From positions 128,001 to 192,000 of the forward strand of contig CAWJZV010000017.1 in the NCBI GenBank assembly GCA_963847445.1: DNA of 64,000 nucleotides, given 5' to 3'. The translations under genes and the position numbers were made by a program. Below are positions 10,623-53,831 of this stretch, one piece after another. The notes under the pieces are model-generated. The model did no database searches, was not told the DNA's origin, and saw nothing but the letters and a program-made list of their open reading frames with translations. The DNA comes from an uncultured delta proteobacterium (GTDB lineage Bacteria; Desulfobacterota; Binatia; UBA9968). Position 1 is the first letter of the stretch; every line of letters starts with the position of its first letter.

Positions 10623-10649
10623 GTATTATCGTGAGTATCGAGGTTGGTC

Positions 10650-11186
10650 ATGAGAAAAATCCAAGTTGCTTTAGGTTGCATCATGGCAATTCTAATCTCG
10701 TCGGCGATTCCCGCGGCAGCCGTTGAGGTCGGTCAGAAGGCACCGGATTTCGAATTGCCCAGCACGAAAGGCGGCAAACTCAAGCTCAGCACGTTTCAGG
10801 GCAAAAAGAGCGTCTTGATCGAGTTCTACGTTTTGGACTTCACGCCGACGTGAATTCAAGAACTGTCATCCAGTCGGGATGACTATGCGCAGTTTGAGCA
10901 GGTGAACGCCGAAATCATCGGCATCAGCGCCAACGCCATTTTTTCACAGCAAGCGTTCGCCGACTTTCTCAAGCTCAACTTTCCCCTGGTGAGCGATTTC
11001 CCCAACCTGAAGACGATCGAAGCCTACGGCGTGCTCAACCCGCAGTCGAAGCTGGCCCAGCGCTCGTACTTTATCGTCGATAAACAGGGCGTCGTTCGTT
11101 ACAAGAAAGTTCAGGAGCGTGGCGAGGGACTGGTGCCCAACGCGCAGCTGGTCGAAGAGATCAGGAAAATCAATCAGGGAGATTGA
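10650..11186 (+). CDS. Exported peroxiredoxin (AhpC/TSA family), probable selenoprotein with Sec at TGA 10851-10853
   Basis: ORFs 10644-10853 and 10902-11186 are in frame; read-through gives APDFELP...EFYVLDFTPT-U-IQELSSSRDDYAQFEQVNAEIIGIS...LVSD...AQRSYFIVDKQGVVRY. Confidence 0.9.
10865..10883 (+). promoter_or_regulatory. Putative bacterial SECIS hairpin
   Basis: GTCATCC-AGTCG-GGATGAC, a 7-bp perfect stem starting 11 nt after the TGA, with G at loop position 2. Confidence 0.8.
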
Positions 11187-11220
11187 ATTTAGTTATTCTA
11201 GGTTTCGTTTGAAGGAGTAT

Positions 11221-47803: not shown

Positions 47804-48779
47804 TCAACGGCTCGCGCTCAGATCGCGGCGGGCTTTTTCGAGGAAGCTGTAGTCGACGATTTGCGGGATCGTGAACGGTTGGGTGACTTTCGAGTCTTCG
47901 CGCACCAAGTCGATCATCAGCTGCATGCCTTCGGGCTTGGCCATCAGGTCGCGGGCCATGCCGCGGTTAAATTGGCGGAGCATCTCGGTGGCGATACGCC
48001 GGTCGGTGAGCTTCCATTGTTTCATGACGATGGTGATGACTTCGTCGCGGTTGCGCGGCTCTAAAGCGAAATTCAATGCGCGCAGCGCCGCCCGCACCAT
48101 GCCGTAGACTTCGTCAGGGCTTTCTTGAATCCGCTTGATCGAAGCGCCGATGGCGTTCTGGGGAAAATTGACGATATCGCCGACGAACAGCAGTTCATTA
48201 TAGCCGCGGTCGACGGCGAGAATATTTTCCGGCACGCCGAGGAGCGCGGCGTCGACGGCGCCTGATTCCAGCGCGGCCAGGCGGTTTTCTCGCAGCGGTA
48301 CGATGGTCACATCGCGGCCCGCCTGAAAGCCCAGATGCTTGAGCGCCGCGTCGGCCATCAGCGTCGCGGTGCCGCCCGGCGTGCTGCCGCCGATCTTCTT
48401 GCCCTTTAACTCTTGTGCCGTACGGATTTCTTTACGCGCAATCAGGGAAATCAACGGGCGATCGACGGCGCAGGCGAGAATCTTGGCCGGGTTGCCGCGC
48501 ACGATGCCCTGAATCACTGCCGTTGATGGCGGCGCTGTAGTCGATATCGCCGCGCACGAACGCGGCGTTGACCGCCTGGGTCGCCATGAAAATGGTTTCC
48601 AGGTCGATGCCCTGCTCGCGGTAGAAACCTTTGTGATAGGCGAGATGAAACGGCAGAAAGCCGATGTTGTTGGACTGGATGCCGAGGCGGACTTTTTTCG
48701 CTGTCGGTCTGCGCGCCGAGATGACTCGGCGCGACCCCGATTGCAAGAATTATCAACAGGGAACAGCGGTAACGCTCAT
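47804..48779 (-). CDS. NMT1/SsuA-type substrate-binding protein (frameshifted)
   Basis: KGFYREQGID, ELKGKKIG and IVDYSFLEKAR motifs across frames. Confidence 0.8.
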
Positions 48780-48808: not shown

Positions 48809-49910
48809 TCATAGCGCGTAGAGCGCCCGCGAGTTATCGCTCAAGATTTTCTCCTTGACCGTCGGCGTCAGGTCGCTGCGCTGGCGAAAGATTCTGATCG
48901 CATCGACATCGCTGGAGATATCGGTGTGGCCGTAGTCGGTGCCGATGACCAGATTATCCTCGCCGGCTTCGCGCACGATGTAGGGAATGTCATCGGAGTT
49001 TTCGCAGGTGACAAACATGCCGTACTCTTTGAGCAAGTTGTCGGGCAACGCTGCGGCCCATGGTTTTGAAACGGTTCTTGGCTTCATGCATCACCCAGGG
49101 CACCCACTGGGCGCTGGCTTCGATGAAGCCGAAGCGCAGCTTGGGAAACTGCTCGTGGATCTCGCTCAGCAGGATATCGTTGAACGACGCCACCGTCGGC
49201 ACGCGGAAGCGGTGCAGCGTTGCCGCGATGCGGGTCGGGTGATTGTACAGGTCGTTCAGCCATGGGCTGCCGTTGGCGATGTGAATAGCGATCGCCATGT
49301 CGAGCTTCTGCGCCTCTTCGTAGACCGGATAGAAATAAGGATCGGCGAGCAAGCGATTGCCTTCCACCGGGCGTAAGCAGACGGCGACGGCGCCGTTCTC
49401 TTTGGACCAGCGGATTTGGTCCAAAGCGTCGGGCATGCTGAGCAGCGGCGGCATGCAAGACCAGCGCAGCCGGCCGTCGCTTTGTTTCCAGATGTCGGCG
49501 AGCCAGCGGTTCCAACTCTTGCACAGCGCGACGTCGGCGGCCGGACGATCGGCGCAGGATTCGATGAAAATGGTGTTGTGCAACACCTGGACATCGACAC
49601 CGGTGGCGTCCATATATTCCAAGCGCAAATCGACGTTGCCGAGTTCGCGGGATGCTTGTTGGTCGGCGAATTTGCGGCCGACCTGCTGTTGGCGTTTGTC
49701 CAGTTCGTCGTCCGAGAACGCAGGGAAACGAAAACCGCGGACTTTACCGTCGATGACCCAGAACTGCTGGCGCACACCGGCCTCTTCGCGGGTCTCCAGC
49801 GGCACCGGTCGATACTGTTCTTCCGACTTGTCCATAAACTCCCACGTCCGTAAGCATTCGACGACGTGGGCATCGGCATCGATGACCAAATTCTTTTTTG
49901 CGCTATCCAT
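48809..49910 (-). CDS. Amidohydrolase_2 family protein, ACMSD-like (frameshift near 49060)
   Basis: IDADAHV, AIHI and IGTDYGH motifs; GGAGG RBS. Confidence 0.87.
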
Positions 49911-49977: not shown

Positions 49978-50735
49978 TTACTCGCGGGCGATCTCCCAGG
50001 CGACCACCGATTCGGTCTTGCCTTTGAGTTCCAGCTCTCGGCGCGTCGCCTTGGGAAACTGCCGGGCGACCGGACCGAAGGTTTCTTGGCCCAGCAATAT
50101 TTCACCCGGCGCGGCGGCGCCTTGGAGCCGCGCGGCTACGTTGACAGTATCACCGAGGACCGTATAGTCGGTGAAGTCTTTGCCGCCGACGTTGCCGACA
50201 AACGCCGGGCCGGTGCTAATGCCGATGCCGATCTCGCAGTCGGTCGTTCTCCGGCAATGTGGCAACATCGCGCAGGATTTCCAACGCGGCGGTCACGGCG
50301 CGTTGTGGATGATCGCGCCAATTCAGCGGCGCGCCGAAGAACGCCATGACTTCGTCGCCCACCAGCTTGTCGAGGGTGCCGTCGTGGCGAAAGATCGCCT
50401 GGGTGGCGATTTCGTAGAAGCGATTGAGCCGCGCCGCCACTGCCGCGGGCTCCATCTGTTCCACCAGCGAGGTGTAGCCACGGATGTCGACGAACATGAC
50501 CGAGATGTTTTTCGTCTCCCCGCCCGGAGGAGCAAGCTCGTATCAGAGGGTACAGAGATGGGGATTCTTGCGCGACGGGCGGATCTGCAGCAACTGATAA
50601 GGCACGGCGAAGATGCCCAAGAAGGGCACCAGGCATTCCTTGCAGCGCTTGCTCGACGGCAAATGGCGATGCAGTAGACGCGCCATCTTGGTCGTGCCAA
50701 CCGTGCGGCGAATCCAGATCAGTAGTTTGTCTCAT
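49978..50735 (-). CDS. Class III adenylate cyclase with N-terminal CxxC...CxxU module, candidate selenoprotein (TGA 50545-50543; indels near 50690 and 50240; alternative start 50686)
   Basis: MARLLHRHLPSSKRCKECLVPF...PSRKNPHLCTL-TGA-YELAPPGGETKNISVMFVDIRGYT is one frame; DKLVGD, GIGISTG and DYTVLGDTVNVAARL motifs. Confidence 0.8.
50516..50532 (-). promoter_or_regulatory. Putative bacterial SECIS hairpin
   Basis: Minus strand CTCC-T-CC-GGGC-GG-GGAG: 17 nt, bulged U, G-first loop, starting 10 nt after the TGA. Confidence 0.65.
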
Positions 50736-50811: not shown

Positions 50812-51101
50812 TTCACCACGAAGGCATGGTTCGACTAGGCTCACCACAGGCTCCGGACACGAAGGGTTCGGGATAAATGTTCCGAGTTTCGTGCTCCGCG
50901 TGTCCTCCTTAGAAAATACACGTGCAGCGATGATCTGCGCATCGATAACGACTCTCTGTTCCGTCATACCGGCGCAGGCCGGTATCCATCCCCTCCCGCC
51001 CCTGGATGCCGGCCTGCGCCGGCATGACGAGTCTAAGGAATGGCTTCCGGTAGTTTCATTATCTGTGGGCGTGCGTAAGATCATGATTCATTTCGTGGTA
51101 A
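50812..51101. repeat. CACGAAG palindrome with a TTCGAC..GCTCA unit in the left arm and a ~186-bp insert (50906-51091) carrying a REP doublet (50962-51029)
   Basis: Same insert termini and same insertion point as at 1954-2160. Confidence 0.8.
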
Positions 51102-52266: not shown

Positions 52267-53082
52267 CTAGAAGTACATCCCGGCATCGCTGCTCTTGCGT
52301 GACACCGGAGATAGCACGCCGAACAGCGACTTCATCGCCCAGTTGGCTAGCGATGCGAGGATAAAGATGAACAATAGCAGCGAGTACATATCGGCGATGC
52401 GGAACTGACCGTAGTACTCGACGATCATGAAGCCCAAGCCGGCTTTGGCGATTTTCGTTTCCGCGAGCAGCGCGCCGGTGACGGCGGCGCCGAGACCGAT
52501 TCTAATACCGGTGAAGACTTGGCCGGCGATGGCCGGGAGATAGACATTTTTGGCGATCTGCACCGGACTGGCGCCGATGGTGCGGGCGACATCGACGTAA
52601 ACCTTTTTCACTTCGCGCATGCCGGCGATGGTCAGCAGCGAAATCGGAAAGAACGCGGCGATGGCGCCGACCGCGAGTTTGGATTGAACGTCGATGCCGA
52701 GAAACAAAATGAACACCGGGAAGATCACGATCTTCGGCACCACGGCGGCGTAGAGAATCAGCGGCTCGACGATCTCCAACCAGCTGCGCTTGCTGCCCCA
52801 TAAAATGCCCAGCGGAATGCCGCTGAGGGCGGCGACGGCGATCGCTCCGCCGACTTCATAGAGGCTGGCCTTTAGATGCGGCAGCATGACCGGCGTGGTG
52901 ACGTAGATCCACAGCGATTGGAGGATTTCCACGATGGACGGAAAGAGCTCGGGAAACAATAAGCCGCTGCGACCGATGAACTCCCAGATGGCGACCAGGC
53001 CGAGCAGCGTGAGCGCCTGAACGCCAAAGGGCGTGTGAATTGCCGCCGCGAGGGCCGAGGGCTTGGGTTGCGCGTGGGCCAT
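52267..53082 (-). CDS. ABC transporter permease (SsuC/TauC type)
   Basis: About 6 TM segments; EAA-like VARTIGAS; LLAE..AKAGLG. Confidence 0.9.
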   Translation of the reverse strand: MAHAQPKPSALAAAIHTPFGVQALTLLGLVAIWEFIGRSGLLFPELFPSIVEILQSLWIYVTTPVMLPHLKASLYEVGGAIAVAALSGIPLGILWGSKRSWLEIVEPLILYAAVVPKIVIFPVFILFLGIDVQSKLAVGAIAAFFPISLLTIAGMREVKKVYVDVARTIGASPVQIAKNVYLPAIAGQVFTGIRIGLGAAVTGALLAETKIAKAGLGFMIVEYYGQFRIADMYSLLLFIFILASLANWAMKSLFGVLSPVSRKSSDAGMYF

Positions 53083-53084
53083 GG

Positions 53085-53831
53085 TTACTTCCTGAACCAA
53101 CGTTCGCAGCGGTTGATTAAATACAGAAACAAAATCGACAGCGAGATGGTGCCGAACAGGCCGGCGTAGACTTCTTCGATTTCGAACTTATACGACGCGT
53201 CGGACAGCCACATGCCGACGCCGCCGACCTGGGCGACATATTCCAGGCCGAGAACCGATTTCAAAATATAGGTGAGCGCCAAGCGAAAGCCGCTGAAGAT
53301 CGTCGGCGCGACGGCGGGGATCAAGATATGGCGGAACATCTGCTGGCGCGACAGATTCATGCTGGCGCCGACCTGCAATAAGATCGGATTGACGTTTTGA
53401 AAAGCGCCTTTGGTATTCATGATGATCGGAATCAAGCCGAAGATCGACGACAGCGCGATCACCGCGGCGCTGGTGCGGCCGAAGGTAACGAGAAAGATCG
53501 GATAAGCAAGAATGATCGGCGAGGAGAAGAGCGCGGCGAGCGGCATTTCGTAACTGGTGCCGATGAGCTTGTAGCGCCAGAGCAAGAAGCCGGCAAGGAC
53601 GCCGAAGATCGTGGCGATGACCAGACAGGCGGCGATCTCGAAAAGCGTGATGCCGGTGAGCGCGAGCGCGTTGCCGTGCAACAGTTGCTGCCAGAGCACG
53701 ATGACCGCGCGCGTCGGCGCGGCGAGAAAGAACGTGCTGATCCAGCCGCCGCGCACCGCGGTTTCGACGAGCAAGAGCGCGCCGAAGATGATGCCCAGCC
53801 GCCAGGCGGTGAGTCTCGTGCTTTCAGACAT
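53085..53831 (-). CDS. ABC transporter permease (SsuC/TauC type)
   Basis: TM segments; RHILIPAVAPTIFSGFRL. Confidence 0.88.
   Translation of the reverse strand: MSESTRLTAWRLGIIFGALLLVETAVRGGWISTFFLAAPTRAVIVLWQQLLHGNALALTGITLFEIAACLVIATIFGVLAGFLLWRYKLIGTSYEMPLAALFSSPIILAYPIFLVTFGRTSAAVIALSSIFGLIPIIMNTKGAFQNVNPILLQVGASMNLSRQQMFRHILIPAVAPTIFSGFRLALTYILKSVLGLEYVAQVGGVGMWLSDASYKFEIEEVYAGLFGTISLSILFLYLINRCERWFRK

Follow-up and report, generated by a model that had tools for sequence, protein, structure and literature searches.

We examined a 64,000-nucleotide stretch of DNA from an uncultured delta proteobacterium of the Binatia lineage UBA9968 (GenBank assembly GCA_963847445.1, contig CAWJZV010000017.1, positions 128,001 to 192,000; hereafter the window) and found that a minus-strand gene at 49978-50735 very probably encodes a genuine selenoprotein, a class III adenylate cyclase whose N-terminus forms a CxxC...CxxU module in which an in-frame TGA would be the selenocysteine (Sec) codon. 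As a whole, we consider it highly probable that this is one gene of about 251 codons whose product would be a soluble Lys/Thr-type class III adenylate cyclase behind a 63-residue four-Cys module. The fourth Cys position would be encoded by UGA in the Binatia lineage and read as Sec, with a short hairpin after the UGA predicted to direct the recoding. A preliminary description of this DNA, made from its letters and reading frames, had proposed an uncatalogued Sec adenylate cyclase of this kind, and that central reading now draws support from the pairing of TGA and Cys in one alignment column, from nucleotide constraint on the hairpin, from the presence of Sec decoding machinery and from the evidence for a single gene. 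A single in-frame TGA followed by a GC-rich hairpin is, on its own, no more than chance would provide; judged from the sequences compared, the comparative evidence goes beyond chance. That comparison establishes the UGA, the nucleotide constraint on the hairpin and the reading frame to either side of the UGA.

Conservation of the TGA codon and its pairing with cysteine

On the minus strand of the window, the ATG at 50686 opens a 47-codon segment (...SSKR-CKEC-LVPFLGIFAVPYQLLQIRPSRKNPHL-CTL-TGA) that ends at a TGA at 50545-50543, and the same frame continues for 15 codons (YELAPPGGETKNISV) into the sequence MFVDIRG that begins with the ATG at 50497. This is exactly the arrangement reported in the preliminary description, which had also placed the TGA where the fourth Cys of a CxxC-x26-CxxC pattern would stand. 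Alignments with homologs, in which that position is an invariant Cys, bear out the placement.

A six-frame search of 60 relatives and of the window's own genome identified orthologs in ten of the relatives, with 52-95% protein identity, each with an in-frame TGA. The TGA column is identical in all ten (...RKNP(H/N)LCTL-TGA-YELAPPGGE). One of these orthologs, L024, comes from an unpublished genome (G005), and the remaining nine agree. Other matches among the relatives were paralogous cyclases with 32-44% identity and without the TGA.

Wider scans covered one representative genome per species, yielding 80 loci, and public metagenome contigs, yielding another 80. Together these gave 153 unique motif-bearing loci, of which 59 carry TGA and 94 carry TGC or TGT in the column. 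Nine loci were missed by the motif search: two with TGA (the same gene of G027), three with Cys, three cut by a contig end and one unresolved. Among the loci of the genome and metagenome scans, none has TAA, TAG or any other residue at this column, and the protein alignments show an invariant Cys there in the full-length Cys homologs. Thus, homologs carry either Cys or TGA, as the preliminary description had anticipated for a Sec codon.

The TGA forms come from metagenome-assembled genomes labelled Candidatus Binatia, 'Syntrophobacteraceae' and 'delta proteobacterium', and also from Chloroflexota (Dehalococcoidia, SAR202 and groundwater 'Chloroflexi'). Sources of the Cys forms include Actinomycetota, Mycobacterium among them, Alphaproteobacteria, Binataceae, Chloroflexia and others. 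In many Cys forms (L056-L119) the fourth Cys is followed at once by a fifth (C-x-x-C-C-D/E), and at the same place the Sec forms read U-Y/F.

Constraint on a hairpin downstream of the TGA

A 17-nt hairpin at 50532-50516 (CUCCUCCGGGCGGGGAG) begins 10-11 nt after the TGA, within the codons for A-P-P-G-G-E, and can be extended by three pairs to 50513-50535. Its minimum free energy (MFE) is -6.8 kcal/mol over 17 nt (z = -0.21) and -9.6 kcal/mol over 41 nt (z = -0.69) relative to dinucleotide shuffles. Thermodynamics was tried and rejected as evidence for the hairpin, since neither the shuffles nor the mean MFE of Sec versus Cys forms gave any separation.

The evidence for constraint comes instead from synonymous sites, tallied in 49 unique Sec forms of the main group and in 36 Cys forms with the same P-P-G-G. 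In the Sec forms, Ala at codon +4 after the TGA is GCT in 44 of 46, Pro at +6 is CCG in 48 of 49, Gly at +8 is GGG in all 49 and Glu at +9 is GAG in 45 of 45. The 48 Pro codons at +5 are divided between CCT (26) and CCC (22), and Gly at +7, which lies in the loop, is GGC in 40, GGT in five and GGA in four. Four-fold degenerate codons only a few positions away in the same Sec forms use three or four codons (1.5-2.1 bits), and the 36 Cys forms use all four codons at each site of P-P-G-G (1.3-1.8 bits). Within the main Sec clade there is only one Cys form, L127, and its codons here are gct cct cct ggt ggt gag.

In 43 distinct sequences of the main group, 98.4% of the cells in the stem are paired. 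Pair 15-29 is UA in 38, GU in three and GC in one, and pair 18-26 is UG in 23 and CG in 20. Ten further unique Sec forms, belonging to other subgroups, have different hairpins at the same place, for example CCUCGGC-GGC-GCCGAGG, or stems of 8-9 bp with a 3' bulge and a GGU/GGC loop. In five of these forms two pairs have been altered in both partners (CG/UA/GU and GC/AU), some of the substitutions being synonymous, and 97.5% of the cells are paired versus 37-68% for slid partners.

The preliminary description had reported a 17-nt hairpin with a bulged U about 10 nt past the TGA. The hairpin is present, but the U is not bulged: at hairpin position 5 it pairs with G and is replaced by C in 20 of the 43 sequences, and the element therefore lacks a bulged U of the type seen in fdhF. 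The likeness to the selenocysteine insertion sequence (SECIS) of Escherichia coli fdhF consists of a short hairpin just 3' of the UGA, within the coding sequence and with a G in its apical loop, whereas the loop sequence and the stem differ. The hairpin thus matches only the general bacterial SECIS model and not the fdhF type. As set out in the legend of Fig. 2 of PMC13188914, that model has a loop of 3-9 nt with G in its first two positions, a stem of 4-16 bp, 16-37 nt from the UGA to the loop and an MFE of at most -7.5 kcal/mol. By the values in that legend the window hairpin fits, with a 5-nt loop, G at loop position 2, a stem of 6-9 bp, a spacing of 16 nt and -9.6 kcal/mol.

Frame breaks in the window copy

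In the window the cyclase gene lies in three frames, broken by two extra bases that we mapped in a 3.4-kb DNA alignment with the orthologous DNA of two relatives (G003 and G004). The cyclase domain PF00211 is split accordingly, with profile positions 6-89 in 50497..50216 and positions 98-176 in another frame, 50268..49978, because of one extra base near 50237. The preliminary description had treated the cyclase as one open reading frame (ORF) from 50497, which is not the case. Its choice of gene start, the ATG at 50686 that opens the 47-codon segment, was also mistaken. In the eight intact orthologs (L021-L028) the ATG lies 63 codons before the TGA and opens a frame of about 250 codons, and the ortholog N-terminus reads M-R/K-K-L-L-I-W-I-R... 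in a protein of about 251 residues. In the window the frame upstream of 50686 is still open and conserved, and the equivalent start codon, at 50735, is one base out of frame.

Contigs from three sediment metagenome runs, each belonging to a different study (X1, X2 and X3), show only 12-14 differences from the window over about 750 bases. Both extra bases are absent from all three and there is no difference at 50543-50545, such that these independent contigs keep the TGA in place of a TGC or TGT, as the preliminary description had supposed. Since near-identical contigs from three studies lack the extra bases, we regard the two frameshifts as most likely errors of assembly and not gene decay. 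Other genes of the same assembly are broken in a similar manner. The amidohydrolase next door is split by a window-specific extra base at about 49050 into ORFs 48990-49910 and 48809-49087, which hold Pfam positions 54-201 and 234-288; a gene for an NMT1-like binding protein falls into two pieces (47804-48517 and 48432-48746); and selB (G000:C14:192855-194823) is spread over four frames. Frame breaks in these three genes indicate a general indel error rate of the assembly.

An unlikely, although the least improbable, alternative accepts the family as a selenoprotein and takes the window copy for a decaying pseudogene, in which the insertions, and possibly the breaks in selB too, are real. Two frame-breaking insertions in one gene copy and a selB in four frames are what such decay would leave. 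Against it stand the near-identical contigs of three independent studies without either insertion, the similar single-base insertions in the amidohydrolase and selB that point to an assembly-wide indel problem, and the fact that selD keeps its own Sec codon.

One reading frame across the TGA

In the eight intact Sec orthologs (28 pairs for each part), the ratio of nonsynonymous to synonymous changes (pN/pS) is 0.23 for the 63 codons upstream of the TGA and 0.29 for the 90 codons downstream. These low ratios argue that both sides are protein-coding in the same frame and under purifying selection. The uninterrupted Cys homologs, with 250-270 residues, align over the whole length. Together with the eight orthologs, these results indicate that the upstream peptide and the cyclase form one gene in relatives, as the preliminary description had assumed. 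TGA is also the terminal stop of the same gene in five of the eight orthologs and is therefore an ordinary stop codon in these organisms as well, arguing that the code has not been reassigned.

Public annotation systematically splits such genes into a 'hypothetical protein' of 46-87 residues and a truncated cyclase of about 172 residues. All of the 42 database matches listed with at least 74% identity have lengths of 93-182 residues, and none covers more than 60% of the read-through query. Furthermore, a profile search with the module identified at least eight representative small ORFs of 46-87 residues that stop exactly before the column (...SRKNPxxCxx-stop). Because of this split the family is invisible in protein databases.

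The annotated arrangement corresponds to a reading in which the TGA is an ordinary stop that separates two genes, one for a Cys-rich peptide of 63 residues and one for a cyclase of 172 residues with a start of its own. Besides the short database entries and the small ORFs ending at the column, the window offers an ATG 16 codons after the TGA from which the cyclase could start. We nevertheless hold this reading to be quite improbable. No start codon after the TGA is conserved, and at codon +16 the residue is Leu in 29 of 49 sequences, encoded in six different ways. Initiation at the ATG at 50497 would delete part of the first catalytic strand, and the 15 codons between the TGA and this ATG have homologous, in-frame counterparts in the uninterrupted Cys forms, which are single proteins. 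Additionally, the nucleotide constraint downstream of the TGA is found only in TGA forms.

Selenocysteine decoding machinery

The preliminary description had suggested, from a Sec-type peroxiredoxin near 10650 of the window, that this genome decodes UGA. The peroxiredoxin (10644-11192, plus strand; AhpC-TSA, E 7e-35) has an in-frame TGA at its peroxidatic Cys (FYVLDFTPT-U) and belongs to a known selenoprotein family. The decoding genes were likewise found. The window's genome contains selA (E 1.5e-148), pieces of selB in four frames immediately downstream of selA, selD (E 1.8e-107) with its own in-frame TGA, and a tRNA-SeC(tca) detected by ARAGORN. On the same genome the best match to the Rfam tRNA-Sec model, at other tRNA loci, reached 45 bits against a cut-off of 47. 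The genes selA, selB and selD adjoin on one strand (G000:C14:191714-195726).

A strong SelA match is present in nine of nine Sec-cyclase relatives, the tenth ortholog-bearing relative being G027. SelA is found in 59 of 61 genomes of the order, and this near-universal presence makes co-occurrence within the order uninformative. Outside it, a strong SelA match was obtained for four of five Chloroflexota that carry the TGA form; the fifth is a 1.6-Mb metagenome-assembled genome. Two of five Cys-form genomes have one.

These observations also bear on a reading in which the UGA is read through but another residue, such as Cys or Trp, is inserted by a near-cognate tRNA, with the hairpin acting as a read-through stimulator. 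Computation does not decide which residue is inserted, and Cys would restore the ancestral Cys4 site. We judge this very unlikely: the TGA forms were found in genomes with SelA, both in all nine relatives and in four of the five Chloroflexota; genomes with Cys forms may have SelA or lack it; the hairpin agrees with the bacterial SECIS model; and Sec paired with Cys at a CxxC motif is what selenoproteins typically show. Finally, although the assembly clearly contains errors, the idea that the window TGA stands for a TGC or TGT that was misread, or that a nonsense mutation changed in this copy alone, has a negligible chance of being right and was ruled out by the comparative data, the same TGA being found in ten related genomes, in the contigs from three other runs and at 59 unique loci.

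Several observations weigh against identifying the gene as a Sec cyclase. The window copy is itself frame-broken, and selB lies in four frames, which, if real, would mean that the strain could not decode Sec. No SelA match was found in the tenth relative G027, whose genome is 92% complete and whose TGA copy is frame-broken. The energy of the hairpin is unremarkable for its composition (z-scores of -0.21, -0.69 and +0.38), and over the 48 nt downstream of the column the mean MFE is -17.8 kcal/mol in Sec forms and -18.7 kcal/mol in Cys forms. The codons for P-P-G-G are self-complementary, and some hairpin potential is therefore expected without any SECIS. The main-group stem is nearly invariant (two of six pairs never vary), most of its pairs being uninformative, and the structures were derived from the same, mutually related sequences on which they were tested. 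No zinc-ribbon hidden Markov model (HMM) in Pfam or NCBIfam matches the module. Lastly, a single RNA-library contig (50388-50627) spans the TGA, and DNA may occur in such libraries; it is no more than a weak hint of expression, and the RNA runs contain only small shares of the sequence words.

Cyclase domain and substrate specificity

The two pieces of the cyclase domain in the window match PF00211 with 36.6 and 44.1 bits (cut-off 21.9), and in an intact ortholog the C-terminal 180 residues match with 87 bits (E 1.6e-24). We built an AlphaFold2 model of ortholog L021 from a 41-sequence alignment in which U was entered as C. The resulting model has a mean predicted local distance difference test score (pLDDT) of 89.9 and a predicted template modelling score (pTM) of 0.84. 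Its best Foldseek match is CyaC of Spirulina platensis (1wc1; E 2.4e-19, template modelling score 0.85 by target), followed by Cya2 and CyaB, and phmmer comparisons with soluble class IIIb-type adenylyl cyclases of solved structure gave E values of 2.5e-26 to 4.8e-24. CyaC, CyaB of Pseudomonas aeruginosa (3r5g) and Cya2 of Synechocystis (2w01) have the same catalytic fold; unlike the protein described here, they lack the Cys4/Sec N-terminal module, and none is a selenoprotein.

The residues D83, K123, D127, T191, N198 and R202 (ortholog numbering) do not vary among 22 sequences. When 41 sequences are compared, D83, K123 and D127 are still invariant, and T191, N198 and R202 are at least 90% conserved. 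Presumably these positions supply the catalytic set of two metal-binding Asp, a substrate-selecting Lys with Asp or Thr, and the transition-state Asn and Arg. K123 aligns with the Lys/Glu switch position, and T191, the Thr of D-Y-T, aligns with the Thr of 'DYTIIG' in CyaB and with a Gly of the guanylyl cyclase Cya2. The preliminary description had deduced ATP specificity from a Lys and from the Asp of D-Y-T. ATP specificity is still indicated, by a Lys/Thr pair that we take to mark ATP-specific class IIIb cyclases, but the specificity residue would be T191 and not the Asp. Class III cyclases dimerise.

The N-terminal module and a possible sensory role

The module has the consensus LPS.PRCK.C..PF.G-x13-PSRKNP..C..C, in which P, C, C, P, SRKNP, C and C/U are invariant among 34 diverse sequences. 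C13, C16, C43 and C46, forming two CxxC knuckles, are accordingly invariant in these sequences, and residues 21-70 of the AlphaFold2 model have a pLDDT of 84-90. Database models return little for it. The 76-residue N-terminus searched against Pfam and NCBIfam matched only DUF6276 (E 0.11, below the cut-off), no sequence relatives of the module were found in the PDB, and a protein atlas queried with a Cys homolog returned only unnamed clusters with scores below 0.9.

A profile of the module searched against 1.84 billion representative proteins gave 920 hits at E <= 0.001 and 303 at E <= 1e-10, and in nine of the ten longest hits scanned the module directly precedes a cyclase domain. Three of these nine cyclase fusions add an upstream MerC mercury-transport domain, and one protein has a cyclic nucleotide-binding domain and a Crp helix-turn-helix after the cyclase, amounting to a one-protein cyclic AMP (cAMP) circuit (these four being P0210, P0213, P0245 and P0231).

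The Cys-form members, annotated as 'adenylate/guanylate cyclase domain-containing protein', for example in Mycobacterium, Mesorhizobium, Iamia, Acidimicrobiia and Chloroflexota, share this architecture at about 250-270 residues, with the LPS..RCK.C...PSRKNP..C..C module directly before the cyclase and 40-66% identity. They differ in having TGC or TGT for TGA and no nucleotide constraint on the A-P-P-G-G-E codons. In the accessible part of the literature, the mycobacterial literature included, no functional study of any Cys-form member was found.

Sec within a two-knuckle motif has precedents. Two proteins listed as selenoproteins in Table 1 of PMC13188914, the FmdB-family putative regulatory protein (TIGR02605, CxxC_CxxC_SSSS, UxxU) and the Dual CXXC motif small protein (NF041197), likewise have Sec for Cys in CxxC...CxxC and are of unknown function. 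They are small, stand-alone proteins, whereas here the motif is fused to a second-messenger enzyme, and neither the TIGR02605 nor the NF041197 model matches the module.

What the module does is a matter for more tentative proposals. The four Cys/Sec residues could serve as metal ligands or could make a selenenylsulfide of the C-x-x-U type, and the cyclase could then be controlled by the state of such a centre. Only about 12 residues separate the end of the module from the first catalytic strand, and on this account its state would be expected to gate cyclase activity. If so, oxidants, thiophilic metals or the supply of selenium would alter how much cAMP is made. We hold with rather less than even confidence the possibility that the Cys3-Sec centre regulates the enzyme by sensing metals or redox state and so couples cAMP synthesis to these inputs, and the sensor mechanism as such is similarly speculative. 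Prokaryotic selenoproteins in general are linked to mercury and arsenic handling in PMC13188914; in combination with the MerC fusions, this makes the sensing of thiophilic metals a reasonable alternative to the sensing of oxidants. Selenium-dependent expression, by comparison, would follow automatically from Sec decoding.

Relation to described selenoproteins

The preliminary description had suggested that nucleotide cyclases are not among the described selenoprotein families. This holds for the 2026 inventory, where none appears among the 119 prokaryotic selenoprotein families of Table 1 (PMC13188914). The word 'cyclase' is also absent from the main texts of PMC13188914, PMC12013277 (deep-Sep), PMC13326102 (BSepDB), PMC9312934 (a review of 2022) and PMC2398784 (the GOS survey); supplementary family lists, such as Table S2 of BSepDB, could still contain a cyclase. 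Full-text literature searches for Sec-containing adenylate or nucleotide cyclases, or for selenocysteine in Binatia, returned nothing relevant, and no NCBIfam model covers the Sec-cyclase family.

Known prokaryotic selenoproteins are mostly redox enzymes and proteins that handle metals and metalloids. A Sec-bearing module on a cAMP synthase would tie selenium, redox or metal chemistry directly to second-messenger signalling, and if the sensor role were true, this would be the first selenoprotein family in such signalling. The natural Sec and Cys versions, existing side by side, provide ready-made controls for the role of Sec in a Cys4 site. New selenoprotein families are still regularly found, and a Sec cyclase would add to this known phenomenon without introducing a new principle.

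Evolution and distribution

A FastTree phylogeny of 148 sequences was built with the Sec/Cys column masked and without a root, leaving out five frameshifted rows, that of the window included. The main clade (support 99) holds 44 Sec forms and one Cys form and unites Binatia with Dehalococcoidia/SAR202. Four further clusters of Sec forms lie within the Cys-dominated part of the tree. At least six changes between Sec and Cys are required, three of them forced by well-supported branches, versus an average of 44 for shuffled labels. The family is widespread among soil, sediment and marine Binatia and Dehalococcoidia/SAR202.

Gene features and surroundings

Features of the cyclase gene and their positions in the window are collected in Table 1.

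Table 1. Positions of the cyclase gene and its parts in the window.
Feature	Position	Strand	Evidence or detail
Whole gene as in orthologs, about 251 codons	49978..50735	-	Starts with ATG 50735-50733, includes the putative Sec codon and terminates with TAA 49980-49978
N-terminal module, 63 codons: two short helices, then LPSxxRCKxC...PF.G...PSRKNPxxCxx; ends just before the putative Sec codon	50546..50735	-	
TGA, probably read as Sec, at the fourth ligand position of CxxC-x26-CxxU	50543..50545	-	TGA in the same column in 10/10 ortholog-bearing relatives
Core of putative bacterial SECIS: 6-bp stem CUCCUC/GGGGAG with a U.G pair, 5-nt loop CGGGC	50516..50532	-	Fold and comparison
Linker YELAPPGGE and class III cyclase domain (PF00211), frame-broken at about 50237	49981..50542	-	Pfam on both pieces
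Extra base (frameshift 1), four codons after the true start, assembly-specific	50725..50725	-	Gap in G003; omitted in contigs of runs X1, X2 and X3
Extra base (frameshift 2) inside the cyclase domain, assembly-specific	50237..50237	-	Absent from G003 and G004; omitted in contigs of runs X1, X2 and X3

In the window (52267-53100) and in the relatives carrying L023, L024, L026 and L027, the cyclase gene follows an ABC-transporter permease and precedes an amidohydrolase. No functional link between the cyclase and these neighbours is evident. Just upstream of the cyclase gene in the window lies a stretch of about 190 nt (50900-51090) that G003 lacks at this site and that is largely replaced by a gap in G004. 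Within it is an inverted repeat (GTCATGCCGGCGCAGGCCGGCATCC ... GGATACCGGCCTGCGCCGGTATGAC). Since 20-mers from this stretch recur 8-15 times in the genome, it looks like a small repeated element resembling a miniature inverted-repeat transposable element (MITE) or a repetitive extragenic palindromic (REP) sequence.

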